Assembly (NCBI GenBank): GCA_021827745.1
Contig: JAKAUI010000045.1
Location: 33,563-97,562 of the forward strand
Source of the DNA: Bacillota bacterium
GTDB taxonomy: Bacteria > Bacillota > Sulfobacillia > JAJZYS01 > JAJZLH01
Length of the DNA stretch: 64,000 bases
Reading direction: 5' to 3'
Under the pieces are notes generated by a model. That model had not been told where the DNA came from. It worked only from the letters and a program-made list of their open reading frames with translations, and made no database searches. The position numbers and the translations under genes were made by a program. Shown in pieces: positions 17,272 through 49,475 of this stretch; position 1 is the first letter of the stretch, and every line of letters starts with the position of its first letter.

Positions 17272-18264
17272 TTACCTGCCGCCCAGCCAGCGTGCCACTT
17301 CCTGGGCGAAGTAGCTGATGGTCAGGTGGGCGCCTGCGCGCTGAATGGCGGTCAAGGACTCTAAGATGGCGTCCTTGCGGTTCAGCCAGCCGCGCTCGGC
17401 CGCCGCCTCGATCATGGCCGCCTCGCCCGACACCTGGTAGGCGACGATCGGCAAGAGGGTCAGGCGGCGCGCCCTCGCGATCAGGTCGAGCGCGGTGATC
17501 GCCGGCTTGACGATGATCAGGTCGGCGCCTTCCTCTTGGTCGGCCAGGATCTCGCGCATCGCCTCTTGGCCATTGGCCGGATCCATCTGATAGGTGCGGC
17601 GGTCACCGAAGGCGGGCGTCGACTGCGCCGCCTCCCGAAACGGACCGTAGAACGCCGATGCGTGTTTGGCCGCGTAGCTCATGATGGCGGTGTCGGTGAA
17701 CCCGACCTGGTCCAGGTGGCGACGGATCGCCAATACCCGGCCGTCCATCATGTCGGACGGAGCGACGATCTCAGCGCCGGCCTCGGCGTGGACCAGCGCC
17801 ATCTTCGACAGCTGTGCCAGGGTGCGGTCATTGTCGATCCGGCCTGCCTCGTCGATCAGCCCGCAATGCCCGTGGTCGGTGTACTCGCACAGGCAGACGT
17901 CGGTGATCACCACGGTCTCGGGAGATCTTTGCCGGATCAGGCGGCAGGCCTCCGGCACCGGCCCCTTCTCGTCCAGGCCGCTTGAGCCGATCGCGTCCTT
18001 GGACGCTGGCAGCCCAAAGAGCAAGACGGCGCCCACGCCGACTTCGGCAGCCCGCAGCGCCTCTTCGGCGGCCTGATCCGGACTGAGGTGGAACTGGCCA
18101 GGCAGGGTGGAGATGGCTTCACGCACCCCGACGCCTGGACAGACGAACAGGGGCTGAATCAGGCTCTTTGCGTCCAGCCTGGTCTCCCGGACCAGCCGGC
18201 GCAGGGCCGGACGCTGGCGCAGCCGACGGCCGCGTAGGAATTCTCCGGTCGTTTCAGTGATCAC
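17272..18264 (-). CDS. hemB: Porphobilinogen synthase (ALA dehydratase)
   Basis: HemB motifs and an active-site Lys region. The track ORF over-extends its N-terminus. A GTG at 18264 overlapping the hemD TGA (GTGA) gives MITETTGEFLRGRRLR, which matches HemB N-termini. Confidence 0.9.
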   Translation of the reverse strand: MITETTGEFLRGRRLRQRPALRRLVRETRLDAKSLIQPLFVCPGVGVREAISTLPGQFHLSPDQAAEEALRAAEVGVGAVLLFGLPASKDAIGSSGLDEKGPVPEACRLIRQRSPETVVITDVCLCEYTDHGHCGLIDEAGRIDNDRTLAQLSKMALVHAEAGAEIVAPSDMMDGRVLAIRRHLDQVGFTDTAIMSYAAKHASAFYGPFREAAQSTPAFGDRRTYQMDPANGQEAMREILADQEEGADLIIVKPAITALDLIARARRLTLLPIVAYQVSGEAAMIEAAAERGWLNRKDAILESLTAIQRAGAHLTISYFAQEVARWLGGR

Positions 18265-19421
18265 ATCCACCGCACCCTGCCTCCTTGCGCCACCAGGCAC
18301 CGGACCAGCTCCTCTGCAGTGGGCCGGGCTGCCTCCGCGGCGACCTGCAATCCACATTCTCGCGCTGTGCGGGCCGTTTGCGGGCCGATCACCGCCACCT
18401 GGAGACGACTTCGCTGCGCTTCGTCCAGGGCCAGGGCCAGGACCTCAGCCGCCCGCCCATCGAAGATAAGGGCCCAGGGCCGCTCGCTTTGCCGCACCAA
18501 GGGACCGAGCGGTTTCAGGGCCGGGCCCGGCGCCGGGATCAGCCGGTGCGTTGCGACCTCTGTCACCTCGAGCCCCTGGCTGCTCAGGGCGACCAGCACA
18601 TCGCGAGGCGCATCCTCCGCCCTGAGCACCGCCACCCGGCCGCCCGACCTGATCTGCCTGCCGAGCTCTGCCGCCAGGGAGAGGGCGCCCTCTTCGCCTA
18701 TGAGTTGAACGGCGACCCCGCCTCGCCCGAGGGCCAGCGCTGTCTTCGGACCGACGGCGGCCACCTGGGCCGGCCCCACCCGCAAGATGGCCGCCGCCGC
18801 CGTGATCGCCGCCTGGGCACTGGTCACCAGCACGCCGTCCCACGCTCCGCTCTCTGACCAAGCCGCCAGGGCGTCTCGGTCACGAGCAGGCGCGAAGCGC
18901 CACATCGGACAACTGAGCGTGCGAGCCCCCAGCTGGTTCAGGGTGCGGACGACGGCCCTTGCCCGCTCCGGTGAGCGCATCACCAGCACATCCGTCCTGG
19001 CAAGCGGCCCCGTCCGTTCGGGCTCTAGGGCGGCCTGCAGCTGGCCTTCTTCGACCGCATAGGGGCGGCCCGGCTGAAGCCAGAGCCCATCTTCGGCGGC
19101 CAGCGCCAGGGCGGCAAAGGGGTCTGGGACCACCCGGGTCGACCACTCCGCTGATGCCAGCCGCCAAAACGGCCGCCGATGCTCGGCAATCGGGTTGCCA
19201 CTGGCGTAGATGACCTGGGGCTGTGCTCGTGACCACCCCCCCAGCTCCGGCACCGCCGCGAAGCGGTGGGCCCCGCTTGGCAGATCGGCCCCAGAGAGCC
19301 CCTCTTCCACCCAGATCTCAGCCCCTCGTTCCGGCCGTCGCATCTCCCAAGGAGCCGGCTCCCATCCAGGCGTGGCGCCGATCCAGCTCAGACGGGTCAC
19401 GTCAGCTCGAACCCAGTGCAC
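18261..19421 (-). CDS. hemD: Uroporphyrinogen-III synthase (with N-terminal extension of unknown function)
   Basis: The C-terminal ~240 aa align to HemD (LVMRSPERA..., VLVTSAQA, AAVGPKTA). An extra ~147-aa N-terminal region has no recognisable domain. Confidence 0.65.
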   Translation of the reverse strand: MHWVRADVTRLSWIGATPGWEPAPWEMRRPERGAEIWVEEGLSGADLPSGAHRFAAVPELGGWSRAQPQVIYASGNPIAEHRRPFWRLASAEWSTRVVPDPFAALALAAEDGLWLQPGRPYAVEEGQLQAALEPERTGPLARTDVLVMRSPERARAVVRTLNQLGARTLSCPMWRFAPARDRDALAAWSESGAWDGVLVTSAQAAITAAAAILRVGPAQVAAVGPKTALALGRGGVAVQLIGEEGALSLAAELGRQIRSGGRVAVLRAEDAPRDVLVALSSQGLEVTEVATHRLIPAPGPALKPLGPLVRQSERPWALIFDGRAAEVLALALDEAQRSRLQVAVIGPQTARTARECGLQVAAEAARPTAEELVRCLVAQGGRVRWM

Positions 19422-20340
19422 GGCGCAGCGCTAGCGCCAACTGCTCTCCCAGCGCCTGCGCCGCGTCGAGATCGCCCTCTGCCGAGGCCGATCCCACGTG
19501 ACCGCCCTCGAGCAGGCTGCCCCGGATCTGCAGCCGCCTCCCCTGGACCGTGGCCCACACGCCGAGCGGCAGGTTGCAGCCGCCGCCGAGCGCCTGCAGG
19601 CAGGCCCGCTCGGCCTCGACCGCCCGGTGGGTCGGCCGATGGTCGATCCTGCGCACCGCCTGGGCCAGCGGGTGGTCCGCTCGACCCTGGACGGCGATCG
19701 CCCCTTGGCCGGCGGCGGGCAGGAGGGGCTCTGGCCCGAGCCTCTGCCACGCTCTGGCCACACCCAGTCGCACCAGCCCAGCCTCGGCCAAGACCAGGGC
19801 GTCCACCTGCTTGGCATCGAGTTTGGCCAGCCGGGTGTCGATGTTGCCGCGGATCTCAACCAGCTCAAGATCAGGTCTGGCCAGGGCCAGAAATCCGGCC
19901 CGGCGCGGCGACGAGGTGCCGACGCGGCTTCCTCTCGGCAACTCCTCGAGTGTGTGTCCCTCTCGAGTGACCAGCACATCCCATGGTGCGCTGCGCTCCA
20001 ATACGGCCAGAATCGCCAGATCGGAGGGCTCGGTCGGCAGATCCTTCAGGCTGTGCACCGCCGCATCCGCCTGGTTGTGGCTGACCGCCGCCTCAAGTGC
20101 CGAGGTGAAGAGCCCGACCTCATCACCTACGCTCAGCGGCAAAGAGCCGTCGTCGCCGGTGGTGGTGAGCAGGACCTCAAGCAGGTCGATGTCCGGCACG
20201 GAGGCCTTGAGTGCCGATTCGACCTGGCGCAGCTGGACCAGAGCCAGAACCGAGCGGCGAGAGGCCAGGCGCAGGATCGGGTGCGGCCCAGCGGACGGGG
20301 TCCGCTGGTAGGCCAGCGGGGCGCCGCCGATGATTCCCAT
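19402..20340 (-). CDS. hemC: Hydroxymethylbilane synthase (porphobilinogen deaminase)
   Basis: HemC motifs (RLASRRSVLALVQ, dipyrromethane Cys region). The track ORF is over-extended. An ATG at 20340 overlaps the hemA TGA (ATGA). Confidence 0.85.
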   Translation of the reverse strand: MGIIGGAPLAYQRTPSAGPHPILRLASRRSVLALVQLRQVESALKASVPDIDLLEVLLTTTGDDGSLPLSVGDEVGLFTSALEAAVSHNQADAAVHSLKDLPTEPSDLAILAVLERSAPWDVLVTREGHTLEELPRGSRVGTSSPRRAGFLALARPDLELVEIRGNIDTRLAKLDAKQVDALVLAEAGLVRLGVARAWQRLGPEPLLPAAGQGAIAVQGRADHPLAQAVRRIDHRPTHRAVEAERACLQALGGGCNLPLGVWATVQGRRLQIRGSLLEGGHVGSASAEGDLDAAQALGEQLALALRRALGSS

Positions 20341-21626
20341 CAGGCGGAAGGAGCCGTCTTTGACCTTGTATCTTCGCCAACGTCGAACAGCTCGGCCGCG
20401 AGGCCCAGGGTCTGATCGGCGTCCGGCCGAGCGGCCAGCATGCGCAGCCGGCGCATCGGAGCGTCCAGGATCTTGCGGTTGATCTGCGAGGTGGCGGCGG
20501 CGATCGCCTGCTGCTGGGCAGGAGTGAGCTCCGGCAGTCGCCGCCACAGCTTGTCCAACTCCTGGGCAGAGATGGCTTCGGCCTGCTGGTTGAGCGCCAC
20601 GATCAAGGGCACGGCCAGGCGACCCTGCTGGTCGGCGAGGTAGCTCTGCACCGCCTGGTCGACCAGCCGGCTGGCGGCGCGGGCGGCCTGACGCCGGCCG
20701 TCGACGTTCTTTGCAACCACCTGGCGCAGATGATCGATGTGGAACAGCTCTACACCGGGCACCGATGCGGCGTCGGCAGCGATGTCGCGGGGCACGGCCA
20801 GATCGAAGATGAACAGGCGACGACCGTCTCTCTTCGCCATCATCCGCTCCACGTCGTCGCGATCGAGAACGGCGTGGGGAGCACCGGTCGAGCCGATCAC
20901 CATGTCCACCCGGGCCAGGTCGACGGCGGCCTGGGTGAAGGGGATGGCCTCAGCGCCGAGACGACTGGCCAGGGACTCGGCCTTGGCAAAGGTGCGGTTG
21001 GCGATCAGGACCTGGCCGATGCCCGCCTCCTTCAGATGCACCAGGCAGAGTTCGGCCAGCTCGCCGGCCCCCAGCAGCAGGACGCCGCGGCCGGTCAGGG
21101 GTCCGAGCACCTCTCGGGCGAGCGCCACCGCGGCATAGGCGACCGAAACGGCCGCCTGGCCCACCGCCGTCTCGCTGTGCACCCGCTTCGCCACCCGCAG
21201 CGCCTGCTGGAAGAGCGGCGCCAGGATCTCCCCACTGGTCCCGGCGGCTACGGCCGCCTGATAGGCGTCTTTGACCTGGGCGATGATCTGGGTCTCGCCG
21301 ACGACCAGCGCCTCGAGCCCGCTGGCCACCCGGAACAGGTGGCGCACCGCCGCCTCGTCCCGATAGAGGCGCAGGCAGCTGTCGAGCTCCGTTGCCTCGA
21401 GTCCAGAATGCCTGGCCAAGACGGCCGGCACCTGGGCCAGACGCTCCTCGCTGGCGCCGGCCAGCCAGACCTCTGTGCGATTGCAGGTGGACAAGACGGC
21501 GCACTCGTCTGCCAGCGAGCCAAGCTCCTCCAGCGCCTCAGGCAGCTGTTCCGCCGTGATCGCCAGCCGCTCCCTAAGGGCCAGGGGCGCGCTGGTGTGA
21601 TCGCAGCCAATGCTCACCAGATCCAC
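20340..21626 (-). CDS. hemA: Glutamyl-tRNA reductase
   Basis: 428 aa with the HemA N-terminal catalytic region (LSTCNRTEVW) and an NADP-binding domain (GAGELAE). Confidence 0.9.
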   Translation of the reverse strand: MDLVSIGCDHTSAPLALRERLAITAEQLPEALEELGSLADECAVLSTCNRTEVWLAGASEERLAQVPAVLARHSGLEATELDSCLRLYRDEAAVRHLFRVASGLEALVVGETQIIAQVKDAYQAAVAAGTSGEILAPLFQQALRVAKRVHSETAVGQAAVSVAYAAVALAREVLGPLTGRGVLLLGAGELAELCLVHLKEAGIGQVLIANRTFAKAESLASRLGAEAIPFTQAAVDLARVDMVIGSTGAPHAVLDRDDVERMMAKRDGRRLFIFDLAVPRDIAADAASVPGVELFHIDHLRQVVAKNVDGRRQAARAASRLVDQAVQSYLADQQGRLAVPLIVALNQQAEAISAQELDKLWRRLPELTPAQQQAIAAATSQINRKILDAPMRRLRMLAARPDADQTLGLAAELFDVGEDTRSKTAPSA

Positions 21627-21627
21627 G

Positions 21628-22350
21628 TCAGTCGTCTCCTTGCTCCGGTACCTGGCCGCTGTGAATCGCCACGGCGCCGAACCCCATCGGCCAGGACTGG
21701 ACGTTCACCAGTCCCGCCTCTTCGAACAAGGCACTGAGGGTGGCGCGGTCTGGGAATAGGGCCAGGGACCTGGGCAGCCATTCGTAGGCTGCCTTGTTGC
21801 GCCCGGCGAGCGCCCCCAGCCAGGGCACCAGGTGATCAAAATAGAGGTGGAAGCAAGACGCCCACAGCCAGTGTTCAGGATGACTCATCTCGAGGGAGAG
21901 CACCAGTCCCCCGGGCCGAACCACCCGCCGCATCTCGGAGAGCGCCTGGACCAAATTCTGCATGTTGCGCAGGCCAAACCCGACCAGCGCCCGATCGAAG
22001 CTCTGATCGGGAAACGGCAGGGCCAGGGCGTTTCCGGTCTGCAGGCGGATCGGCAGCGCCTCGCCCAGCCGGCTGATCTTTTGAACACCCAGGGCCAGCA
22101 TCCGGGCGGACAGGTCGCACCCGGTCACTTCTCCGCCGGGCACCACCCGCCTGGCCGCCAATACCGCAAGGTCGGCCGTACCGGTCGCGACGTCGAGCAC
22201 CTTCTGGCCAGGAGCAAGCGTGGCCCGCCGCATCAGGGCCCGCTGCCACAGCCCATAGGCGCCGAGCGTCATCACGCGGTTCATCGGGTCATAGACCGGC
22301 GCGATCCGGTCGAACAACGAGGTGACGTCTTTTTCCTTGAGTCGCTCCAC
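21628..22350 (-). CDS. ubiE: Demethylmenaquinone / ubiquinone methyltransferase UbiE/MenG
   Basis: 240 aa SAM-dependent methyltransferase (VLDVATGTAD) with the UbiE-family N-terminus (FDRIAPVYDPMN). Confidence 0.85.
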   Translation of the reverse strand: MERLKEKDVTSLFDRIAPVYDPMNRVMTLGAYGLWQRALMRRATLAPGQKVLDVATGTADLAVLAARRVVPGGEVTGCDLSARMLALGVQKISRLGEALPIRLQTGNALALPFPDQSFDRALVGFGLRNMQNLVQALSEMRRVVRPGGLVLSLEMSHPEHWLWASCFHLYFDHLVPWLGALAGRNKAAYEWLPRSLALFPDRATLSALFEEAGLVNVQSWPMGFGAVAIHSGQVPEQGDD

Positions 22351-25879: not shown

Positions 25880-26746
25880 TCAGCTCAGGCGGTCTCTGAC
25901 GGCCGGCACCACGTCCCAGGGCATCTCGACCACGCTGGCGCCAGCGGCCTCCAGGGCCTTGCGCTTTGACTCCAGGGTTCCTCGACCACGCTCGATGATG
26001 GCGCCGGCGTGCCCCATCCGCTTGCCGGCCGGTGCCGCCTTGCCGGCCAAGTAGACCACGACCGGCTTGTTCATCTTCTGGATGAAGGGAGCCGCTTCTT
26101 CCTCGGCGCTGCCGCCGATCTCGCCCACCATCACCACCAGCTTGGTCGCCTCGTCCTCTGAGAAGCGATGCAGAATCTCGTTGAAGGTCTGTCCTGCGAC
26201 CGGATCGCCGCCCATGCCCACGGCCGTGGTCTGGCCAAGTCCGGCTCGGGTCAGGGCGTCGGCGATCTCGTAGGACAGGGTTCCGGAGCGGGCGACGAGA
26301 CCGATCGGGCCCGGTGCGAAGATGTGGCCCGGCGGGATGCCCATCTTGGCCTCACCGGCGGTGACCAATCCGAAGGTGTTCGGCCCCAGCACCACGGCGC
26401 CCTGGTAGCGGGCATATTCCAAGATGGCGATCGTGTCCTGGACTGGAACGTGCTCCGGCACCATGACCAGAAGCTTGATCCCTGCGGCCAGCGCCTCGAA
26501 GGCGGCATCTTTGGCAAAAGGAGCCGGCACGAACATGACAGAGGCGCTGGCCCCGGTCTCGTTGACGGCGTCGCTGACCCGGTCGAAGACGGGCACCCCC
26601 TGGTGGATGGTGCCGCCCTTGCCCGGGGAGGTTCCGGCCACGACTCGGCTGCCGTAGGCCGCCATCTGGCCGGCATGGAAGGAGCCCTGGTTGCCGGTGA
26701 TGCCCTGGACTAAGATCGGGGTCGAGCGGTCGATCAAGATGCCCAT
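25880..26746 (-). CDS. sucD: Succinyl-CoA synthetase alpha subunit
   Basis: 288 aa from the internal Met (MGILIDRSTPILVQGITG) with a CoA-binding region and the phosphohistidine segment. The track ORF is over-extended out of frame into sucC. The ATG overlaps the sucC TGA (TGATG). Confidence 0.9.
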   Translation of the reverse strand: MGILIDRSTPILVQGITGNQGSFHAGQMAAYGSRVVAGTSPGKGGTIHQGVPVFDRVSDAVNETGASASVMFVPAPFAKDAAFEALAAGIKLLVMVPEHVPVQDTIAILEYARYQGAVVLGPNTFGLVTAGEAKMGIPPGHIFAPGPIGLVARSGTLSYEIADALTRAGLGQTTAVGMGGDPVAGQTFNEILHRFSEDEATKLVVMVGEIGGSAEEEAAPFIQKMNKPVVVYLAGKAAPAGKRMGHAGAIIERGRGTLESKRKALEAAGASVVEMPWDVVPAVRDRLS

Positions 26747-27858
26747 CACGCGCCTCCTCGGCTCAGCCGGACGGCCTCTTCCGCCGCCTGGTCCATGTCT
26801 CGGTACGCCTGAATGCCCTGTTGCTTCAGGATCTCGATCCCGGCCTCTTCGTTGGTGCCGACCAGCCGCACGACGAGCGGAACGGGGATGCCGCGGCTTT
26901 CCTTCACCTGGGTGATCGCTCGGGCGACGTCGTCGCAGCGCGTGATGCCGCCGAAGATGTTGATCAGGATCACCTTTGGCTTCATCTCGATCAGCACCTC
27001 GATCGCCTGGGCGGTGGGCTCCACGCTGGCGCCGCCTCCGGCGTCCAGAAAGTTGGCTGGCTTGCCGCCGAAGTGCTGGACGGCGTCCAAGGTGGCCATG
27101 GACATGCCGGCGCCGTTGGCCATGATCGCCACATCGCCATCCAGCTCCACATAGGCGAGTCCGATGGCGTGGACCTTCTTTTCCAGGGCGGTGCCCTCTT
27201 CGACCATTGGCAGATCGCCGCGGCGGAAGAGGGCGCTGTCGTCGATGTTCAGTCGAGCGTCGGCAGCGATGATCCGCCCAGCACACCTCACGAGCGGGTT
27301 GATCTCGACCAGCTCGGCGTCGGTGCGGCGAAACACGTCGTACAGCTGGCCGACGATCTTGGCCACCTGCTTGGCCTCATCGCCAACGAGCCCCATCTCC
27401 GCCGCGATCTCGCGACAGAGGTAGGCCGGCAGGCCAAACGACAGATCGACATGGCGGCGAACGAGGTCTCGCTCGGCCACGTCCTCGATCTCGACGCCGC
27501 CTTTGGCCGACGCCATGATCAAGGGCTTTCTGGCGCTGCGGTCGACGGTCACGGAGAGGTAGTACTCCGCCTCGACCTCGAGTTTTTGCTCGACGTAGAC
27601 CTGCTTGACCAGGTGGCCCTTCAGGTCCATGCCCAAGATGGCCTTGGCGACCGTCTCGGCCTCGGCTCGATTCTCAGCGAAGCGGATGCCGCCGGCCTTG
27701 CCCCTGCCGCCGACCAGCACCTGGGCCTTCACAGCGGCGGGACCGATCGCCTCTACTGCGGCCACCACCTCGTCCACCGTGGTGGCGAGCCGTCCCTCCG
27801 GCACCGGAATGTTGGCCTGGCGCAGCGCGCCCTTGGCCAGATACTCGTAAAGCCTCAG
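26746..27858 (-). CDS. sucC: Succinyl-CoA synthetase beta subunit
   Basis: ATP-grasp beta subunit. The conserved N-terminus (LYEYLAKGALRQANIPVPEG) lies upstream of the track's GTG start. The only start-like codon at the homologous Met position is a CTG overlapping the maeA TGA (CTGA). Confidence 0.8.
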   Translation of the reverse strand: MRLYEYLAKGALRQANIPVPEGRLATTVDEVVAAVEAIGPAAVKAQVLVGGRGKAGGIRFAENRAEAETVAKAILGMDLKGHLVKQVYVEQKLEVEAEYYLSVTVDRSARKPLIMASAKGGVEIEDVAERDLVRRHVDLSFGLPAYLCREIAAEMGLVGDEAKQVAKIVGQLYDVFRRTDAELVEINPLVRCAGRIIAADARLNIDDSALFRRGDLPMVEEGTALEKKVHAIGLAYVELDGDVAIMANGAGMSMATLDAVQHFGGKPANFLDAGGGASVEPTAQAIEVLIEMKPKVILINIFGGITRCDDVARAITQVKESRGIPVPLVVRLVGTNEEAGIEILKQQGIQAYRDMDQAAEEAVRLSRGGA

Positions 27859-29114
27859 TTCGGTGTCCCTCCTTCTTCCTCTGCCCCAGTCAGTGCGGCG
27901 AGGCGATGTCCGATCTCCTTGGGGTCGAGATCGGTCACCTGGGCCAGCCCCTCGTCGATGGCGGCGCGGGCCACCGCCTCGGCCACCGCCGGCGCCACCT
28001 TGGGATCGAGCGGCGACGGGATGATGTAGTCCGGGCGCAGCTCGTCCCCGACCAGTTCCGAAATGGCCAAGGACGCCGCCCGGTGCATACCGGCGCTGAT
28101 CTGACGGGCCCGCACGTCCAGGGTGCCGCGAAAGACGCCGGGAAAGCCGAGCACGTTGTTGATCTGGTTGGGGAAGTCCGATCGGCCGGTGCCGACCACG
28201 GCGGCGCCGACCTCCAGCGCCTGGACCGGCCAGATCTCCGGCACCGGATTGGCCAGTGCGAAGACGATGGAACCTGGGCGCATGGCCGAGAGCATGTCCA
28301 TGGTGAAGGCGCCGGCGACAGACAGTCCGATCAGCACGTCCGCGCCGCGCACGGCCTCGGCGAGCTCGCCCTGGCGACGGTCCAAGTTGGTGTGCTGTGC
28401 GATCGACTCCTTCTCCTCGTTCAGCTCTGGCCGCCCGCGATAGATGAGGCCGCGGCGGTCGACCAGGGAGAGGTCGTTGACGCCGAGGGCGAGCAGCATG
28501 CGGGCCACGGCGATGCCGGCCGCTCCGGCGCCGTTGATCACGATCCGGACGTCTCCGACCGTCTTGTTGGCCACCCGGACGGCGTTGATGAAGGCGGCGC
28601 CGACCACGATGGCGGTGCCGTGCTGGTCGTCGTTGAAGACGGGGACGGCGAGCGACGCCTGCAGGCGGCGCTCCACGGCGAAGCAGCGCGGGGCGGCAAT
28701 GTCCTCGATGTTGACGCCGCCGAATCCCGGCTCGATCAGCTCCATCACCCGGCAGATGTCGTCGGGATCCTGGCTTCTGACCAGAATCGGAAAGGCATCC
28801 ACGCCGCCGAAGCGCTTGAACAGGACGGCCTTTCCTTCCATCACGGGAAGAGAGGCCTCCGGGCCGATATCGCCCAACCCCAGCACCGCCGACCCGTCGG
28901 TCAGGATGGCGACCTGATTGGCACGGTTCGTGTAGGTGAAGACCTGCTCAGGATGGGCATGAATTTCGCGGCAGGGCTCGGCCACTCCTGGCGTGTAGGA
29001 CAGGGACAGGCCGTCCATGTCGTCCACCGGCATCTTGGCGGCAATCTCGATCTTGCCCCTGTGCTCGCTGTGATAGCGCAGGGCCCGATCGCGGCTCAGC
29101 CAGCGCCGGCTCAG
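27855..29114 (-). CDS. maeA: NAD(P)-dependent malic enzyme
   Basis: ME domains (LSLSYTPGVA, NAD-binding GAGAAG). The conserved N-terminus (ALRYHSEHRGKIEIAAK) lies upstream of the track's ATG. No ATG/GTG/TTG is in frame, and a CTG at 29114 overlaps the mdh TGA. Confidence 0.8.
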   Translation of the reverse strand: MSRRWLSRDRALRYHSEHRGKIEIAAKMPVDDMDGLSLSYTPGVAEPCREIHAHPEQVFTYTNRANQVAILTDGSAVLGLGDIGPEASLPVMEGKAVLFKRFGGVDAFPILVRSQDPDDICRVMELIEPGFGGVNIEDIAAPRCFAVERRLQASLAVPVFNDDQHGTAIVVGAAFINAVRVANKTVGDVRIVINGAGAAGIAVARMLLALGVNDLSLVDRRGLIYRGRPELNEEKESIAQHTNLDRRQGELAEAVRGADVLIGLSVAGAFTMDMLSAMRPGSIVFALANPVPEIWPVQALEVGAAVVGTGRSDFPNQINNVLGFPGVFRGTLDVRARQISAGMHRAASLAISELVGDELRPDYIIPSPLDPKVAPAVAEAVARAAIDEGLAQVTDLDPKEIGHRLAALTGAEEEGGTPN

Positions 29115-30043
29115 AAGCCCAGCACCGACAGGGGAGCGCGCACCGCTTCCACCGAGGCGTCGAAGGCCGCCTTCTCGTCAGGCTCAAGGCCGATCTCGAC
29201 CACCTCTTCGACGCCGCCTTTGCCGATCACAGCCGGCACGCCGACGTAGACGCCCCGATGGCCGTACTCGCCGTTCAGGTAGGCCACCACCGGAATGGTC
29301 CGGCGCTGATCGAGCAGCACGGCCTCCACCATCTCCGCCGTTGCCGCCGCCGGAGCGACGAAGGCCGATCCGTTCTTCAGCAGCTGCAGGACCTCTCCGC
29401 CGCCGCCCCTAGTGCGGGCGACGATCCGGTCGATCGCCTCCTGGCTGAGATGCCGCTCGACCGGCTCGCCACCGACCGTGGAATAGCGGACCAAAGGCAC
29501 CATCTGATCACCGTGGCCGCCCATCACGAAGCCGAACACATCTTTGGCCGAAACGCCCAGTTCCCAGGCCAGAAAGGTCCGAAAGCGGGCCGAGTCCAAT
29601 CCGCCGGCCATGCCGAAGACCCGCTGATGGGAGAGCCCGGAGGCGCGGTGGGCGACGAAGGTCATGACGTCGACCGGGTTGGTGACCACGATCACGACGG
29701 CCTCCGGCGAGGCGGCCACCGCCCGGGACACCACGTCTGAAATGACGTCGTTGTTCACCTTCAAGAGATCGTCGCGGGTCATGCCGGGCCGGCGCGGCGA
29801 CCCGGCCGTCACCACCAGGACATCCGAGCCAGCCGTCGGGGCGAAGTCGTTGGTGCCGGTCACAGACACGGTGTGCCCGAAGATCGGTGCCGACTCTGCC
29901 AGGTCCAGCGCCTTGCCCTGCGGCCAGCCCTCCACCACGTCGAAGAGGACCAGGTCGCACAGGTTTCGGGCCATCAGCCACATGGCGGTGGTGGCTCCCA
30001 CGTTTCCGCTTCCGACCAGGGTCACCTTCGGTCGCTTGGTCAC
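29111..30043 (-). CDS. mdh: Malate dehydrogenase (LDH-like)
   Basis: 310 aa with an NAD-binding N-terminus (VTLVGSGNVG) and an LDH/MDH catalytic region, starting on GTG. Confidence 0.9.
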   Translation of the reverse strand: MTKRPKVTLVGSGNVGATTAMWLMARNLCDLVLFDVVEGWPQGKALDLAESAPIFGHTVSVTGTNDFAPTAGSDVLVVTAGSPRRPGMTRDDLLKVNNDVISDVVSRAVAASPEAVVIVVTNPVDVMTFVAHRASGLSHQRVFGMAGGLDSARFRTFLAWELGVSAKDVFGFVMGGHGDQMVPLVRYSTVGGEPVERHLSQEAIDRIVARTRGGGGEVLQLLKNGSAFVAPAAATAEMVEAVLLDQRRTIPVVAYLNGEYGHRGVYVGVPAVIGKGGVEEVVEIGLEPDEKAAFDASVEAVRAPLSVLGF

Positions 30044-30044
30044 C

Positions 30045-31286
30045 TCAGCTCACTCCCTTGTTCTGCATGCGGGACATCATCGACCGGGCGAACTCGGAGG
30101 TGGACACCTTGGTCGCTCCCGGCCGCACCAGGTCGTAGGTGACGATGCCATCGGCGATCGACTGGGCCAGGGCGCCCTCCAGCAACTTGGCCGCCTCGGT
30201 CCAGCCCATCGCCTCCAGCATCATCGCCGCCGACAGCATCAGGCTGCCGGGGTTGGCCTCGTCCTTTCCGGCATGGCGCGGGGCCGTGCCATGGGTGGCC
30301 TCGAAGACCGCTGCCTGATCCGATAAATTGGCGCCTGGCGCCAGGCCGATGCCGCCCACCTCGGCGGCGATGGCGTCCGACAGATAGTCGCCGTTCAGGT
30401 TGGTGGTGGCGATCACGTCGTAGGCGCCCGGGTGCAGCAGCACCTGCTGGAACATGTTGTCGGCGATCCGGTCCTTGATCACGACCAGCCCTTCGGGCGG
30501 CGGGCCGCTCAGATCCTGCTCCAAGACGACCTGGCCCTTGAACTCGGACGCCACCTCGTATCCCCAGTCCCGAAAGGCGCCCTCAGTGAACTTCTGGATG
30601 TTTCCCTTGTGCACCAGGGTCACAGAACGGCGGTGCGCCTCTATCGCGTAGGTGATCGCTCGCCGCACCAGACGCTTGGAGGCACCCGGGCTGATCGGCT
30701 TGATGCCGATGCCGGATAAAGGATCGATGCTGACCCCAAGCCGCTCTTTCAAGGTTGCGACCAAGAGGGCGGCCTCGGCCGATCCAGAGGGCCACTCGAT
30801 ACCGGCGTACACGTCTTCCGTGTTCTCGCGGTAGATGACCATGTCGACCTGCTCCGGGTGCTGCAGCGGGCTCGAGACACCTGGGTAGTAGCGGACGGGG
30901 CGGACACAGGCGTAGAGATCGAGTTCCTGGCGAAGCGCCACATTCAAGGAGCGGATGCCGCCGCCGACCGGTGTCGTGAGCGGCCCCTTGATCCCAACCT
31001 TGACCTGGCGCAGGGTGTCCAGCGTGGCCGGTGGCAGGTAGCTCCCGGTACGCTCCTTGGCCTTTTCACCGGCCAGGACCTCGACCCAGACGATCTTCCG
31101 GCGCCCTTCGTAGGCGCGCTCGACCGCAGCTTCGGTCACTGCCTTGGTGGCCGGCCAGATGTCTCGTCCGATGCCGTCGCCTTCGATGAAGGCGATCAGC
31201 GGGTGATCGGGCGTGCGCATCTTGCCGGAACCGAACTCGACCAGATCGCCGCCGCCTGGGAGCGTCTCACTCATCACGGATCCCAT
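30045..31286 (-). CDS. icd: Isocitrate dehydrogenase (NADP-dependent)
   Basis: 413 aa of the prokaryotic homodimeric IDH type ([23 protein letters not shown]). Confidence 0.9.
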
Positions 31287-31368
31287 CCTTCTTGGTCATG
31301 GCGGCGAGCGCCATTTGCTCCAGCGCTGATTGGAGGGGGGTCGGTGCGTCCGAAGGCGGGCGGTTGGG

Positions 31369-32859
31369 TCAGAGCTTGATGCTGGGCGTTCCGCTCGGAG
31401 CCACGACGAGCTTGGCCCACATACCGAGCTGGATGTGTCCGGGCACCAGACAGGCGATCACGTAGTTGCCGGCGGTTGTGGCCTTGAAGGTGAAACTGGA
31501 CTTGGCCCCCGGCGCGTCGCCGAGCACCGGGTTCGGCGTTTCGTCTGTGGCTGCAAGCGCCGTGCTCGAGGTCTGCGACGCCGTGATCGCCGCCGAGTGG
31601 TTCAGGCTGCCGTCGTTGGTGAACGCCACATCCAGGGTCCAGCCCTGGGGAATGGTCACCACCATCGCCCCGTTTGCAGCCCCGTTGAAGTTGAACCCTC
31701 CGTTGGTGGTGCCGTAGCCGCCGAGCAGGGTGAGGGTGGCCGTCTTGGTGGCCGCGTTGGTGGAAAGGTAGCTGCTGGCCGCCTGCACCGGTGCGGCGAC
31801 CCCCTGGTTGACGGCCCCCAGATAGGTCAGAACGACGATCGCCGCCACCACGATGCCGCCGGAGTAGACGTAGCCCTTGCGCTCAGATGGCTTGCGGTCG
31901 GGGATCTTGTCGATGAAGGGCAAGAGCACGAGCATCAGGATGCCGATCGTCGGCAGCCCGATGATGCCGAAGGCGTCCAAGGCCGGCGGGATGTACTTCA
32001 AGAGCTGGTAGATGGAGAAGAAGAACCAGAGCGGAATCGGCACGTAGTGGGCCTTGTTCAAGGGGTCGGCGATGGCCAGGAGCGGGGCGTGGAAATTGAT
32101 CGAGAAGTAGAGCAGAGCGGCCGAAAGGATGACCAGGAACATGGTCATCTGAAACACGGTGGTCGGGAAGAAGGTGACGAGCCCCCGCTGCTTCTCCTTG
32201 GGCAGCTTCTCGGCCTCTTCCACCATGGTCAGTTGCTTGCTGAGCACCATGTAGAAGTGAAGCCCGAAGACGAGCAGGAAGAGCGCTGGCAGAACGAGCA
32301 CGTGGATGGCGTAGAAGCGGGTGAGCGTGACCCCGGTGATGTAGGGGCCGCCGCGCATCAGGAGCACGATGTAATAGCCGATCACCGGCATGTAAAAGGG
32401 CATCCAGGTGCCGACCATCGTCGCCCAGTAGGACTGCTGGTCCCAGGGCAAGAGATAGCCGGTGAACGAGAACAAGATGGTGATCAGGAGCAGTCCGACG
32501 CCAGACAGCCAGACCAGTTCCCTAGGCTTGCGGTAGGCGCCGATGTAGTAGCCGCGCAGCATGTGCAGGAAGACCAAGACCACCATGAAGTTGGCGCCCC
32601 AGTAATGCAGGTCCCTGATCAGCCACCCCAGCGGCACCGTGTGCATGATCCGCTGTACGCTCTGGTAGGCGCCGGTGACCGAGGCGTTGTACCAGGTGGC
32701 CAGGATGATGCCTGTGACCACCTGGTTGATGAACACGAAGAGCGTCCCCAGGCCCAGAAAGTCGAGCGGGCTAACTCGGCGCGGCACCCGGTGGTAGAGC
32801 TGAAGATTGATGAACGACCGGATTCCCATCCGGTCGATCACCCAGTTGGCGGGCTTCAA
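31369..32859 (-). CDS. qcrB: Menaquinol-oxidoreductase subunit: cytochrome b6 + subunit IV + C-terminal cupredoxin fusion
   Basis: Two bis-His heme-b helices (HYWGANFMVVLVFLH, HVLVLPALFLLVFGLH), a subunit-IV-like region (PIPLWFFFSIYQLL), and a C-terminal ~150-aa domain with type-1 Cu ligands (...NH..., CLVPGHIQLGM). There is no CxxCH. The likely start is a TTG at 32859 overlapping the qcrA TGA. Confidence 0.8.
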   Translation of the reverse strand: MKPANWVIDRMGIRSFINLQLYHRVPRRVSPLDFLGLGTLFVFINQVVTGIILATWYNASVTGAYQSVQRIMHTVPLGWLIRDLHYWGANFMVVLVFLHMLRGYYIGAYRKPRELVWLSGVGLLLITILFSFTGYLLPWDQQSYWATMVGTWMPFYMPVIGYYIVLLMRGGPYITGVTLTRFYAIHVLVLPALFLLVFGLHFYMVLSKQLTMVEEAEKLPKEKQRGLVTFFPTTVFQMTMFLVILSAALLYFSINFHAPLLAIADPLNKAHYVPIPLWFFFSIYQLLKYIPPALDAFGIIGLPTIGILMLVLLPFIDKIPDRKPSERKGYVYSGGIVVAAIVVLTYLGAVNQGVAAPVQAASSYLSTNAATKTATLTLLGGYGTTNGGFNFNGAANGAMVVTIPQGWTLDVAFTNDGSLNHSAAITASQTSSTALAATDETPNPVLGDAPGAKSSFTFKATTAGNYVIACLVPGHIQLGMWAKLVVAPSGTPSIKL

Positions 32860-33392
32860 TCGATCTGCCCCCCGATGTATACGTTGCCGTTCGCGATCTT
32901 GACCACATGCGGCCACAGGCCCCTAGGCGCCGGCCCTGCGATGTGCTGGCCGTTGGCGTTGTACACAGAGCCGTGGCACGGGCACTGGAACTCCTTCAAG
33001 CTTGAGTTCCACTGCACCGGACACTGCAGATGGGCGCAGTGAAAGTCGAAGGCCTGGATCACGCCAGGCGACTTCTGCCGGACGTAGACACCGTCCGGAA
33101 AGCCGGCGCCCGTGTAGTCGATCAGGGTGTAGTTGTTCGTGAACTTGTTGATCGGTCCGATGTTCTGGAGCTTGCCCAGGGGTCCGCTGGCTGGGAACAG
33201 ATTCTTCAGCGCCAGTCCGAGATAGCCGACGCCGAACAGGCCCATGGCGCCGATCAGGCTGTTTCTCAAGAACTTGCGACGGCCGAGCTCCCGCTCTGCC
33301 CGCCCATCGGCGATGCAGTCGGCACAGACCTCCCCATCGCCGTCCACCGGATTCCCACAGATGCTGCAGCGCAACCTTGTGTCCACCGTCAT
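32856..33392 (-). CDS. qcrA: Rieske [2Fe-2S] protein with N-terminal zinc-ribbon
   Basis: 178 aa with Rieske boxes CAHLQC and CPCHGS, an RRKFL twin-arginine/TM anchor, and an N-terminal CSIC...CADC motif. Confidence 0.85.
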   Translation of the reverse strand: MTVDTRLRCSICGNPVDGDGEVCADCIADGRAERELGRRKFLRNSLIGAMGLFGVGYLGLALKNLFPASGPLGKLQNIGPINKFTNNYTLIDYTGAGFPDGVYVRQKSPGVIQAFDFHCAHLQCPVQWNSSLKEFQCPCHGSVYNANGQHIAGPAPRGLWPHVVKIANGNVYIGGQID

Positions 33393-33460
33393 CGCGCGAT
33401 CCCCCCAAGTCTTGGCAAGATACGCCCTGTGTTGGAACCTGGCCGGTTTAAAGCATCCCG

Positions 33461-33489
33461 ATTGTAGCCTGCGCTCCCAGGTGCGTCAA
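33461..33489 (-). promoter_or_regulatory. Sigma-A-type promoter candidate for qcrA-qcrB
   Basis: TTGACG, a 17-nt spacer, then TACAAT on the minus strand, about 70 nt upstream of the qcrA ATG. A GGGGGG RBS precedes the start. Confidence 0.45.
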
Positions 33490-33567
33490 CCGCGTGGCAA
33501 TGCCCAAAAACCGCTGTGCGTCTGTCTTTCGACGTTCTCAAGAAATCTTTCACAACGTCCTTCCGGC

Positions 33568-34653
33568 TCAGGACACGGCCGTCTCGACCTGCCAAGGGGC
33601 CTCATCCACCGCCTTGGCGAGCAGGCCGAAGACGGCGGCGGACTCGCTCTTGGGATGCGTAAAGACGATCGGCTGACCCAAGTCTCCGCCCTCGGAGATC
33701 GCTGCCTCTACCGGAACCTTGCCCAAGAGCGGCGCCCCCAGCGCCGCCGCCAGCTCCTGGCCTCCCTCGCCGCTGAACAGGCGGGTCGGCTCGCCGCAGG
33801 AGGGACAGCGCAGGTAGGACATGTTCTCGACGACGCCGAGCACGCGCTGGCCCACCTTCTTCGCCATCTCGCCGACCCGCACCGCCACCTTGGACGCCGC
33901 CACCTGCGGCGTGGTGACCAAGAGCACCTGCCCCTGGTGCAGCCGCTGGGCGAGCGTGATGGCAACGTCCCCGGTGCCCGGCGGCGAGTCCACGACCAGA
34001 TAGTCGAGGTCGCCCCACATCACGTCGCCCATGAACTGCTCCAGAAGCTTCGTCAGCATCGGACCCCGCCACATCACGGGCGTACCCTCGTCAACCAGCA
34101 TGCCCATCGAGATCACCTGGACCCCCAGCGACTCCACCGGCAGGATCATGTCGTCGGAGAGCACCACCGGTCTGCGGTCGACGCCGATCATGCGCGGCAC
34201 CGAAAAGCCGTAGATGTCGGCGTCCAACACGCCAACGGCTCGCCCCAGCTGGGCCAGCGCCACGGCCAGATTGACCGCCACGGTCGACTTGCCGACGCCG
34301 CCCTTGCCGGATCCGACGATCAGCACCCGAACCCTAGAGCCTTCCTTCGTCACCGATGAGTGGCGGACGGGGCGGAGCTCCTGGGTCAGCTTCTGACGCT
34401 CCTCTGGCGTCATCACAGAGGTGACGACCGCCACATCGGCGATGCCTTGGACGCCTGCCATGGCCTTTGTCACGTCGCCCTCGATCCGGCCCTTGAGCGG
34501 GCAGCCGGCCGTCGTCAGCTTGACCGCCACCGTCACCTTCTGGCCGTTGACCTGGACGGATTCCACCATGCCGAGCTCGGTCAGCGGCCGGTGCAGCTCC
34601 GGGTCTGTGACCTCGGCGAGCCGCCGCCAGATCTCCTGCTCTTGGTCGGTCAT
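33568..34653 (-). CDS. apbC: Fe-S cluster carrier ATPase Mrp/ApbC (with N-terminal DUF59)
   Basis: 361 aa with the Walker A GKGGVGKST, the C-terminal CPSCGE motif and an N-terminal MIP18/DUF59 region. Confidence 0.85.
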   Translation of the reverse strand: MTDQEQEIWRRLAEVTDPELHRPLTELGMVESVQVNGQKVTVAVKLTTAGCPLKGRIEGDVTKAMAGVQGIADVAVVTSVMTPEERQKLTQELRPVRHSSVTKEGSRVRVLIVGSGKGGVGKSTVAVNLAVALAQLGRAVGVLDADIYGFSVPRMIGVDRRPVVLSDDMILPVESLGVQVISMGMLVDEGTPVMWRGPMLTKLLEQFMGDVMWGDLDYLVVDSPPGTGDVAITLAQRLHQGQVLLVTTPQVAASKVAVRVGEMAKKVGQRVLGVVENMSYLRCPSCGEPTRLFSGEGGQELAAALGAPLLGKVPVEAAISEGGDLGQPIVFTHPKSESAAVFGLLAKAVDEAPWQVETAVS

Positions 34654-35310: not shown

Positions 35311-35406
35311 TGGCGGGAGCAGGTAGGAATCGAACCTACCGCGGACGCGACGCGCCCGCCATTGGATTTGAAGTCCAAGGGGGACACCAGCCCCACCTCT
35401 GCCCCC
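35311..35406 (-). tRNA. selC: tRNA-Sec (selC), anticodon UCA
   Basis: 96 nt with an 8-bp acceptor stem (GGGGGCAG/CTGCTCCC), anticodon arm TTGGA-CTTCAAA-TCCAA matching the E. coli selC loop, a long GC-rich variable arm, T-arm GGTAGG-TTCGATT-CCTACC, discriminator G and an encoded CCA. Confidence 0.85.
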
Positions 35407-35467: not shown

Positions 35468-36229
35468 TCATTCCTCGGCAGGAGGCTCTTCGTCTGAGTC
35501 CTCGGGCGGCTCGTTCCGTCGCCTCTGGCGCTCGGCCAGCGCCGAGAGCCACACTCCGACCTCGTATAGGACCAGCATCGGACTCGCCAGCACCAGCATC
35601 GACATCAGGTCCGGCGGCGCAAAGGCGGCGGCCAGCACAAAGATGATGAAGATGGCCATCCGCCGCTTCTGGCGAAGCCAGTGCGCAGAGATCAGGCCCA
35701 GCCGGGTCAGCGCCATCACGACCAACGGGAATTCGAAGACGATGGCCAGGGGGAGCATCAGGCCAATGATGAAATCGACGTAACTGCTGTAGGTGATCAT
35801 CGGGTGCACGACCGGTCCCGTGAAAGAAAACAGGAAGCGAAAGACGACCGGCGCAAACACGAAGAAGGCGAAGGCGGCCCCGGCCCAGAGCAGAAAGAGC
35901 GCAGCCGGAGCATAGGAAATGACCAGGTGGCGCTCTTCTCGGGTCAGCCCGGGCCAGACGAAGGCGGCCACCTCATAGATCAGAAGCGGCGAGGTTACGA
36001 TCAGGGCCGCCACCAAAGAGGCCTGAATGTAGGTGAAAAAGAGCTCCGAGGGACTGATGAAGATGAGTTCCTTGATCCGACCGCCGGTGGCCAGGAGCAG
36101 AAACTGGGTCAGGCCGGTGGCATGAAAGAAGAACCAGACCGCCACCGGCAGAAACACGACCAGATACGTGATGATGCGGTTGCGCAGCTCTCCCAGATGC
36201 CCTTCCAGCTGCAGCAGCGGCCGGCTCAT
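35468..36229 (-). CDS. tatC: Sec-independent protein translocase TatC
   Basis: 253 aa with 6 TMS and TatC-family conserved segments, plus an acidic C-terminal tail. Confidence 0.9.
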   Translation of the reverse strand: MSRPLLQLEGHLGELRNRIITYLVVFLPVAVWFFFHATGLTQFLLLATGGRIKELIFISPSELFFTYIQASLVAALIVTSPLLIYEVAAFVWPGLTREERHLVISYAPAALFLLWAGAAFAFFVFAPVVFRFLFSFTGPVVHPMITYSSYVDFIIGLMLPLAIVFEFPLVVMALTRLGLISAHWLRQKRRMAIFIIFVLAAAFAPPDLMSMLVLASPMLVLYEVGVWLSALAERQRRRNEPPEDSDEEPPAEE

Positions 36230-46770: not shown

Positions 46771-48090
46771 TTGCCCGCCGAGCGTCGTCTTTTGCCCATC
46801 TATCTGTTCGGGGTGTTCATCGGCGCGCTCGACACCAACGTCTTGGGCCCGGCCCTGCCGCTGGTGGCCCATGCCTTCTCGACCACCTTGGCCTGGACCG
46901 CCTGGACGATCACCGCCTACACGGCCGCCTACATCGCCAGCACTGTGCTGGCTGGTCCGGGTGGGGACCGCGTCGGCCGACGCACATTCTTTCTGGTCGG
47001 CATCGCCCTGTTCGGGGCGGCCTCCCTGCTGGCGGCCCTGTCCGGCAACCTGCCGCTCTTCCTGGTGGCGAGAACCCTGCAGGGCGCCGGGGCCGGCCTG
47101 GTCTATCCCAACGCCCAGGCCGAGGGGATGCGGGCCTTCCCGGAGGAAAAGCGGGGCATGGCACTGGGCCTGTTCGGGGCTGTCTTTGGGCTGGCCGCCA
47201 TCATCGGTCCCAACCTCGGCGGTCTCCTTGCCCAGGCCTTCGGCTGGCCGGCCATCTTCTTGGTCAACGTGCCCTTGGCCGTGATCGTCCTGGGGCTCGG
47301 CCGCCGCCTTCCCAAGACCGAGGCCGATCACCCCGGCGGTCTGCCGGACGTCTTCGGAGGGGTGGCGTTTTCGCTCACGCTCGTCTTCTTGCTGCTGGCG
47401 CTCAGCGCCGCGTCGATGCTCAGCGTGGTTTGGCTCATGGCCGCCCTCGTCTCTGGCATCACCTTCAGCCTGCGCCAGCGGCGGGCGGCCACGCCCTTTC
47501 TCGACACCGCCCCGCTCAAGACCTCTTCTGGTGCCTTCATGATGGCGGCTGCCGGCATCATCGGACTGGATCTGGCTGCCGCCGTGTTTGTTCCAGCCTT
47601 GGCCCAGCAGGAGCTCCACTTCTCGGTCCTCTTGTCGGGCGTGGCCCTGATGCCCGCCGCCGTGGTCGGAGCCGTCCTGGCCGGTGCCGCCGGCGTGCTG
47701 GTGGATCGCCTGGGTGCGCGCCGGGTCCTCCAGGTTGGCCTGGCGGCAGCCGGTGTCGGCGGTGTCTTGATCGCCCTGCCCGACCTCACTGTGGTGCGCT
47801 TTGTCATCGCCATGGCCTTCTTCGGCTTCGGCACCGCCTTCACGCTCGGTGCGCCGATCAACCGACTCGCCACCTTGCTCTACCGCAAGGACCAGCTGGG
47901 CGAGGCCCTCTCCCTGGTGGCGGTGGCCCGGGCCGTCGGACTGATGGTCGGACCGGTGGTGTTCGGCCTCATGATCACGAACTCCGGCTTTTCAGCGCCG
48001 TTCTGGCTGCTGGCGGTCGTCTCGGCTCTGGGCGTCATGCTGCTGTTTCAGGTTCCCAACTGGCTTCAGCCTAGCCAGGTGGCCTCATGA
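46771..48090 (+). CDS. MFS transporter
   Basis: 12-TMS MFS with motif A-like GDRVGRR. The probable TTG start at 46771 has a GAGGAGG RBS 8 nt upstream. The track ORF (from 46015) is a frame left open across the antisense gene. Confidence 0.75.
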   Translation: MPAERRLLPIYLFGVFIGALDTNVLGPALPLVAHAFSTTLAWTAWTITAYTAAYIASTVLAGPGGDRVGRRTFFLVGIALFGAASLLAALSGNLPLFLVARTLQGAGAGLVYPNAQAEGMRAFPEEKRGMALGLFGAVFGLAAIIGPNLGGLLAQAFGWPAIFLVNVPLAVIVLGLGRRLPKTEADHPGGLPDVFGGVAFSLTLVFLLLALSAASMLSVVWLMAALVSGITFSLRQRRAATPFLDTAPLKTSSGAFMMAAAGIIGLDLAAAVFVPALAQQELHFSVLLSGVALMPAAVVGAVLAGAAGVLVDRLGARRVLQVGLAAAGVGGVLIALPDLTVVRFVIAMAFFGFGTAFTLGAPINRLATLLYRKDQLGEALSLVAVARAVGLMVGPVVFGLMITNSGFSAPFWLLAVVSALGVMLLFQVPNWLQPSQVAS

Positions 48091-48972: not shown

Positions 48973-49021
48973 CGCCCGCGGCGCCGGCTGGTCGCGCAAG
49001 GTCAAGGCCTCCCCAGGAGGG

Positions 49022-49474: not shown

Positions 49475-49475
49475 C

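Follow-up and report, generated by a model that had tools for sequence, protein, structure and literature searches.

A Rieske/cytochrome b operon with a fused sulfocyanin-type copper domain at the position of cytochrome c in a Bacillota bacterium

The 64,000-nucleotide stretch of contig JAKAUI010000045.1 analysed here (Bacillota bacterium, assembly GCA_021827745.1; called the window throughout) contains a two-gene operon for a Rieske 2Fe-2S protein and a cytochrome b that continues, within the same polypeptide, into a sulfocyanin-type cupredoxin. The operon probably encodes the quinol-oxidising module of an aerobic chain that apparently works without haem c, the fused copper domain serving as the electron exit to the CuA centre of the oxidase. 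Rieske/cytochrome b complexes conventionally comprise three redox subunits, the third of which is normally a c-type cytochrome, and the copper carriers of Sulfolobus, haloarchaea and the plastocyanin systems are separate proteins. The novelty that the evidence supports is a third redox module in the form of a fused copper domain of the sulfocyanin type, which took the place of a fused cytochrome c while related functions were lost in concert. The operon had been singled out in an earlier note made from the letters of the DNA. The strongest evidence beyond that note is the absence of the cytochrome c maturation (ccm) cassette from this locus and the lack of a cytochrome c domain in the oxidase subunit II (CtaC) encoded about 20 kb away. 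The operon is composed as follows.

32856-33392, minus strand: Rieske 2Fe-2S subunit, 178 aa (PF00355)
31369-32859, minus strand: cytochrome b::cupredoxin fusion gene, 496 aa (open reading frame (ORF) and Pfam; stop codon at 31369-31371)
31804-32859, minus strand: cytochrome b core, residues 1-352, unsplit b6 plus subunit IV (PF00033, PF00032)
31372-31803, minus strand: linker of about 12 residues and sulfocyanin-type cupredoxin, residues 353-496 (PF06525)

The domain order proposed in the earlier note, a Rieske gene followed by b6, subunit IV and cupredoxin in one ORF of about 496 residues, was confirmed at these positions by the ORFs and by Pfam. Its expectation that the C-terminal domain would match a cupredoxin model was borne out by the SoxE family PF06525, found with an E-value of 3.8e-18 in the whole protein and of 6.4e-20 when the 142 C-terminal residues are scored by themselves; its bit score is 71.6, the cutoff being 21. 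Among the NCBIfam models sulfocyanin ranks first for this domain, followed by nitrite reductase and rusticyanin, all of them under their equivalog cutoffs, and on these scores we class the domain as a member of the PF06525 domain family and not as an equivalog of archaeal SoxE. The note had called the domain azurin/auracyanin-like, which stands for the type-1 copper spacing and falls for the family: rusticyanin is the next closest to sulfocyanin, and membership of the azurin/auracyanin family was rejected because PF00127 scores just below its cutoff and SoxE far more strongly. The ligand set that had been read from the letters is present, with H421 in SLNHSAA followed by C470-x4-H475-x4-M480. 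We aligned 19 sequences, namely the window domain, three clade members and 15 free-standing sulfocyanin-like proteins at 34-50% identity; H421, C470 and H475 are invariant among them, the GGFNFNG signature is present, and the position of M480 is occupied by Met in 16 sequences, His in one and Gln in two. The putative type-1 site would be occupied by copper. A CuA-like binuclear site in the fused domain was ruled out, since there is a single cysteine only. The predicted structure is a cupredoxin, as anticipated: an AlphaFold2 (AF2) model of the domain alone, which sets the fold and not the docking, reached a predicted local distance difference test score (pLDDT) of 94.8 and a predicted template modelling score (pTM) of 0.89, and Foldseek matched it to rusticyanin, auracyanin and CuA domains. 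A sequence search of the PDB with the domain returned no solved sulfocyanin, the nearest entries being nitrite-reductase cupredoxin domains and rusticyanin. The linker of about 12 residues is delimited in the AF2 model by the end of helix G at residue 351 and the first strand at residue 365.

The preceding cytochrome b core matches PF00033 (Cytochrome_B, E 4e-47) and PF00032 (Cytochrom_B_C, E 1.5e-7). It begins with TTG, the last two bases of which overlap the TGA of the Rieske gene (ATTGA), so that the two genes are translationally coupled; the TTG start is supported because W6 is invariant across 13 homologues. The haem-b ligands H85 and H99 in helix B and H186 and H201 in helix D are likewise invariant in the 13 homologues. 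We count seven helices, six by hydropathy plus helix B with H85 and H99 from the AF2 model, in which the core has a pLDDT mostly above 90 and is matched by Foldseek to bc1 cytochrome b (E 1e-16). Lys and Arg abound at the N-terminus and in the F-G loop, which predicts an outward-facing C-terminal domain. The motif of the quinol-oxidising (Qo) site reads PLWF (residues 276-279, window 32023-32034, minus strand), with Leu for Glu/Asp and Phe for Tyr, whereas its place in the ef loop and its Pro and Trp are those of the PEWY type. C470 is the sole cysteine of the 496-aa protein, which therefore has neither a CxxCH motif nor the cysteine of a haem ci. A plus-strand ORF of 570 aa at 31330-33042, antisense to both genes, was rejected as a low-complexity, Arg/Gly/Asp/His-rich shadow ORF of high-GC DNA.

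For the comparison of architectures we took the 120 best of 2,477 cytochrome b homologues. PF06525 occurs in only three clusters among them (P0001-P0003), which are 85-93% identical and all 496 aa long; with the window protein they form a small set of four close sequence variants from uncultured Bacillota. The fusion could in principle be an artefact, either an assembly chimera or a frameshift read-through joining cytochrome b and separate sulfocyanin genes, and one 8,722-bp NCBI contig indeed has the gene called as 363 aa plus 98 aa (P0413 and P0121). We hold this to be extremely improbable: the identical 496-aa ORF is found on 14 contigs from several independent assemblies, the three further clusters at 85-93% identity share its length and architecture, and the codon bias is continuous across the junction, with a G+C content at third codon positions (GC3) of 0.87-0.92. 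The 98-aa piece is 100% identical to the window C-terminus and begins inside the β-sandwich, which makes the split itself the artefact; it is probably a sequencing frameshift, and would make automated annotation miss the fusion. Annotation pipelines label the fusion only as "cytochrome b N-terminal domain-containing protein", and metabolic reconstructions of these metagenome-assembled genomes (MAGs) would therefore miss complex III.

The next relatives of the fusion protein are 458-481 aa long, with 50-74% identity in the core. P0004-P0016 are collinear with it up to the end of helix G (LTYLGA..QG) and from there on are monohaem cytochromes c, recognisable by CxxCH and, distally, MPLGG. In a neighbour-joining tree of cytochrome b residues 1-352, four copper sequences nest inside 36 cytochrome-c-bearing sequences; copper is therefore the derived state. 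The suggestion of the earlier note that a cupredoxin takes the place of a cytochrome c thus gains a direct counterpart, as the orthologous loci carry the monohaem domain at the same junction and the tree nests the copper form among them. Together, the sequences support the view that the copper domain replaced a monohaem cytochrome c seated at the same position in all sampled relatives.

The gene order around the operon points in the same direction. In the haem-c relatives L097 (P0004, 74% identity) and L098 (P0006, 68%) it reads DUF502-mrp-Rieske-cytb::cytc-ccmE-x-ccmA-ccmB-ccmC-...-icd-mdh-malic enzyme-sucCD, and L003 and L004 show the same order plus a csoR-like gene. The cassette that follows cytochrome b in these loci occupies the following positions.

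L004, 11368-14854: ccm cassette
L003, 7183-10647: ccm cassette
L097, 10415-13578: ccm cassette
L098, 4119-7307: ccm cassette

It consists of System I maturation genes and contains ccmE, an unknown ORF, ccmA, ccmB, ccmC and a small ORF, preceded in L003 and L004 by a gene for a CsoR-type metal-sensing repressor; ccmF and ccmH were not seen in the cassette stretches examined. System II is usual in Bacillota, and the occurrence of System I there is noteworthy. In the window and in L001, L008 and L010, cytb::SoxE is directly followed by icd, and no homologue of any gene of the cassette was found within the 64-kb window. The haem-c domain and the adjoining maturation genes are both absent and have thus gone together; the neighbouring ccmE-x-ccmABC cassette and the cytochrome c domain of CtaC appear to have been lost in the same lineage. 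The stretch that separates the fusion gene from icd was aligned with its counterparts in L097, L098 and L008 in search of deletion or replacement breakpoints, and showed no usable similarity to them. The downstream ORFs at 26746-31286 are 87-92% identical to genes of L001 and its close relative L008 annotated as Iso_dh, Ldh, malic enzyme and succinyl-CoA ligase, in agreement with the neighbouring tricarboxylic acid (TCA) cycle genes described earlier. A donor arrangement, i.e. a free sulfocyanin gene beside a bc operon, was not present in the contexts of P0130 and P0133, and in JGI metagenomes none of the 80 best loci encoding a SoxE-like domain has a cytochrome b within 3 kb, L074 adjoining cox2/cox1.

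The presumed electron acceptor is encoded in the same window, in an oxidase operon 18-22 kb from the Rieske/cytochrome b operon.

53266-54081, minus strand: ctaC, haem-copper oxidase subunit II (COX2_TM and COX2); start probably GTG at 54060, giving 264 aa
51326-53212, minus strand: ctaD, oxidase subunit I, 628 aa (PF00115, E 1e-165)
50712-51329, minus strand: ctaE, oxidase subunit III (PF00510)
50401-50706, minus strand: small membrane ORF, 101 aa, at the ctaF (subunit IV) position, by position and by analogy with COX4_pro of L009
49476-50351, minus strand: ctaG (Caa3_CtaG), oxidase assembly
49022-49549, minus strand: DUF420, oxidase assembly
48085-49080, minus strand: ctaA, haem A synthase, oxidase assembly

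CtaC keeps the CuA ligands, H184 followed by C-AQF-C-GVG-H-YN-M (H184...CAQFCGVGHYNM), and the enzyme therefore needs a one-electron donor and not a quinol. It has no cytochrome c domain, which is present (PF00034/PF13442) in 111 of the 120 best CtaC homologues and exemplified by the oxidase operon of L009; the three from the clade of the copper fusion, at 85-100% identity, likewise lack it. A six-frame scan of the 64 kb gave four CxxCH motifs in total, of which three lie in open frames with a GC3 of 0.41-0.65, well under the 0.75-0.92 of gene-like ORFs, and the fourth, with a GC3 of 0.80, runs antisense to an ORF of 386 aa on the minus strand (18261-19421). The 64-kb window thus holds no CxxCH in a plausible gene, and it contains neither a cytochrome c domain nor a second cupredoxin. 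The observation that the operon and its neighbours are free of CxxCH, made originally for a smaller region, can be extended to every plausible gene in the 64 kb, and a c1- or f-like gene, for which the surroundings of the operon were to be watched, occurs nowhere in it. By extrapolation, cytochromes c may be absent genome-wide. Alternatively, the true exit could be a separately encoded cytochrome c elsewhere in the genome, with the fused cupredoxin as an accessory branch leading to another copper enzyme or as a structural remnant. Our view is limited to 64 kb, and a Chloroflexota protein (P0210) with both cytochrome c and SoxE on cytochrome b illustrates that the modules can coexist; however, such an exit fits poorly with a threefold loss that took the haem-c domain at the tether, the local ccm genes and the cytochrome c domain of CtaC while CuA was kept, and with the retention of all four Cu ligands across the clade despite 12-28% divergence of the domain, and we judge it quite unlikely.

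In the mechanism that we propose for the copper exit, a quinol, presumably menaquinol, would be oxidised at the Qo site. Menaquinol is assumed because Bacillota use it, and the UbiE/MenG-type methyltransferase in the window fits this assumption but is not menaquinone-specific. The first electron would pass via the Rieske 2Fe-2S cluster to the type-1 copper, which is tethered at the outer membrane face, while the second would cross the membrane via haems bL and bH in a Q cycle; the copper domain would then reduce CuA of the aa3-type oxidase. A carrier held by a tether of about 12 residues could not diffuse, which implies that the two complexes would form a bc-aa3 supercomplex. The same components could be imagined to run with the copper domain as the point of electron entry, from Fe(II) or another cupredoxin, downhill to aa3 and uphill through a reversed Rieske/cytochrome b complex to quinone. 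Such a route has been proposed for Acidithiobacillus ferrooxidans with its rusticyanin and petI bc1 complex; the kin of the domain, sulfocyanin and rusticyanin, are both implicated in Fe(II) oxidation by acidophiles (PMC4062416; PMC3750248; PMC4378227), and NCBI gives the label "Sulfobacillus sp." to one close homologue. On the other hand, the genes around the locus belong to a heterotrophic TCA cycle, the direct orthologues found in relatives encode ordinary complexes of cytochrome b with cytochrome c and have these same neighbours, and genes of Fe(II) oxidation (cyc2, outer cytochromes, rus) were not seen in the window; electron entry through the copper domain is thus unlikely.

Several points weigh against a haem-c-free module with a copper exit, which remains our preferred reading. 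The domain scores only 65 bits with the TIGR03094 sulfocyanin equivalog against a cutoff of 168, and in the full-length AF2 model its pLDDT is only 40-80, so that its placement is of low confidence. Only 64 kb were seen, and other parts of the genome could hold a cytochrome c, a System II maturation system or ccm genes that have moved. In cultured Sulfobacillus, most genomes do have genes for some c-type cytochromes (PMC4378227). The assignment to Sulfobacillus is doubtful, as the name rests on one NCBI MAG label, with a GC content of about 66% in the window; no rRNA is present in the 64 kb. Finally, the Qo motif has Leu where most complexes have Glu/Asp. This Leu has no bearing on the swap of haem for copper because haem-c relatives have it too: P[LI]WF is the form of most related haem-c proteins, with PAWY in P0016. 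Qo variants with a hydrophobic second position are known in other clades (PVWY; PMC4122944), and PLWF is not among the variants named in that survey of the motif.

A further-reaching scenario, which we put forward only tentatively and with more doubt than confidence, is that the lineage is wholly without c-type cytochromes. In it, one recombination would have swapped the 3' end of cytb together with ccmE-x-ccmABC for a sulfocyanin fragment, with loss of the CtaC domain alongside. The resulting obligate 2Fe-2S to type-1 Cu to CuA supercomplex would be an independent bacterial reinvention of the SoxM design.

Among known systems, the closest comparator is the unsplit cytochrome b-cytochrome c fusion clade (Kao & Hunte, PMC4122944) rather than the split QcrB/QcrC of Bacillus chosen in the earlier note. 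P0004-P0016, orthologues from Bacillota MAGs, share the cytochrome b-cytochrome c fusion architecture. With them the fusion shares the order of Rieske and cytochrome b, the seven-helix fusion with its junction after helix G, the neighbourhood, the P[LI]WF form of the motif and 50-74% identity in the core; it differs in the type-1 copper cupredoxin in place of the CxxCH monohaem domain and in the absence of the adjacent ccm cassette. The menaquinol:cytochrome c reductase QcrABC (b6c) of the Bacillus subtilis type is likewise a Bacillota Rieske/cytochrome b complex with its exit redox domain fused to the subunit IV part, and the helix-D histidines (H186 and H201 here) show the 14-residue spacing of b6. 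In QcrB a cysteine binds haem ci, whereas the sole cysteine of the fusion is a Cu ligand, and the exit domain carries haem c in Bacillus and copper here. Moreover, QcrB and QcrC are separate polypeptides (PMC3475470), as opposed to a single one in the window.

In the Sulfolobus SoxM complex, sulfocyanin SoxE is regarded as the bridge from the Rieske/cytochrome b module to the subunit that carries CuA (PMC5461723; PMC4122944). At the level of genes alone, our system resembles SoxM of Sulfolobus acidocaldarius (SoxEFGHIM) in having a Rieske protein, a cytochrome b, a PF06525 sulfocyanin and a CuA oxidase but no cytochrome c. Subunits I and III of the SoxM oxidase are fused, whereas ctaD and ctaE are separate genes here. 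For the bridging role of SoxE in the SoxM supercomplex, PMC5461723 cites Komorowski and Schafer (2001 and 2002). SoxM is archaeal, its SoxE is not fused to cytochrome b but forms a polypeptide of its own that is anchored separately in the membrane, and the cytochromes b are only distantly related (116 bits with NF041076 SoxC against a cutoff of 740). As judged by these comparisons, the complex would work like SoxM but is not a member of the SoxM type.

The Chloroflexota cytochrome b-cytochrome c-SoxE protein P0210/P0422 (e.g. HVC83454.1; 631 aa) also carries a SoxE-type domain at its extreme C-terminus, 41% identical to ours. It differs in keeping a CxxCH cytochrome c between cytochrome b and cupredoxin, in a core that is 33% identical and in a PDWY motif, and its sequence marks it as an independent fusion in another phylum. 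In the b6f-plastocyanin, haloarchaeal bc-halocyanin and alternative complex III (ACIII)-auracyanin systems, a blue-copper protein carries electrons off the quinol-oxidising complex as proposed here, but none of them has the cupredoxin fused to the complex. Its reductant in b6f and ACIII is a c-type haem (that of cytochrome f and the ACIII haems, respectively) and not directly the Rieske cluster. The caa3-type oxidase, the form of the nearest CtaC homologues, differs by the cytochrome c fused to subunit II.

The substitution of copper for haem is familiar, but a covalent swap for which the ancestral state survives in sister lineages offers a clean system for its study, and the haem-c and copper forms at one locus provide a natural matched pair for comparison. 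It raises the questions of how the Rieske head docks to a cupredoxin instead of a cytochrome, and of what drove the exchange of haem c for copper, be it cofactor economy, loss of the maturation machinery or habitat. To our knowledge, direct transfer from a Rieske cluster to copper has never been resolved structurally. A third question is whether a whole bacterial aerobic chain can run without haem c.

An exhaustive HMMER search with the copper domain against 1.84 billion cluster representatives gave 882 matches. These were judged from protein length and from where the match lies, supplemented by a Pfam scan of the ten longest or multi-domain proteins; in the top 150, no cluster other than P0001 proved to be a cytochrome b-SoxE protein. 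P0210, with its retained haem c, is the only other cytochrome b-SoxE architecture that we found, and the arrangement is thus as rare as had been supposed. A full-text search within one library of papers, among them the Qo-motif survey and papers on Sulfobacillus genomes, returned no paper on a cytochrome b-cupredoxin fusion, which is not proof of absence, and no publication on the Chloroflexota triple fusion P0210/P0422; it did return cytochrome b-cytochrome c fusions, cytochrome b-FeS fusions and separate copper carriers. SoxE was also seen in other fusions, namely SoxE-CoxB-cytochrome c (P0205, 790 aa), pyrroloquinoline quinone (PQQ)-dehydrogenase-SoxE (P0196, 738 aa) and DUF2231-SoxE (P0262, 344 aa). 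These look like a general pattern of tethered copper carriers, for which we found no description.

The Rieske protein contains the cluster boxes CAHLQC at residue 119 and CPCHGSVY at residue 137, its disulfide cysteines are present, and an RRKF twin-arginine motif is combined with one membrane anchor. The NCBIfam models of b6f and bc1 Rieske proteins match it under their cutoffs. N-terminal of the twin-arginine motif, on the cytoplasmic side, residues 9-26 (window 33315-33368, minus strand) form a CxxC-x11-CxxC zinc-ribbon-like motif with weak Pfam matches to Zn_ribbon_3 and DZR_2, kept in L002-L004 as MRCRMCG...LCEECA. It is unusual for a twin-arginine translocation (Tat) signal anchor to have a metal-binding module at its cytoplasmic side. 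The following features lie upstream.

33461-33489, minus strand: sigma-70-type promoter-like site TTGACG-17-TACAAT, 10 of 12 consensus matches, predicted from sequence
33568-34653, minus strand: Mrp/ApbC-type Fe-S cluster carrier ATPase, directly upstream of the Rieske gene
35468-36229, minus strand: tatC, for the translocase that should carry the Rieske domain out in its folded state

The promoter-like site is the -35/-10 pair that had been attributed to the operon; it is the sole one in 31000-33700 (2.7 kb scanned; 0.5 expected) and lies 70 bp upstream of the Rieske start. In all related loci that were examined, the genes of the Mrp/ApbC ATPase and DUF502 directly precede that of the Rieske protein. 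The tatC gene follows further upstream within this conserved neighbourhood, with two other genes intervening in L097. This suggests that the Mrp-DUF502-tatC set forms a conserved neighbourhood that serves to assemble and export the Rieske subunit.

In addition, a haem biosynthesis cluster lies at 17272-22350 on the minus strand, 9 kb from the bc operon, in an arrangement common to L008. Its hemA was confirmed by Pfam, the ORFs at 19402-20547, 18261-19421 and 17272-18357 resemble hemC, hemD and hemB by eye only, and the UbiE/MenG-type quinone methyltransferase is encoded at 21628-22350 on the minus strand. A tRNA-Sec gene (Rfam, 72.7 bits) is situated between the DUF502 gene and tatC at 35315-35406 on the minus strand.

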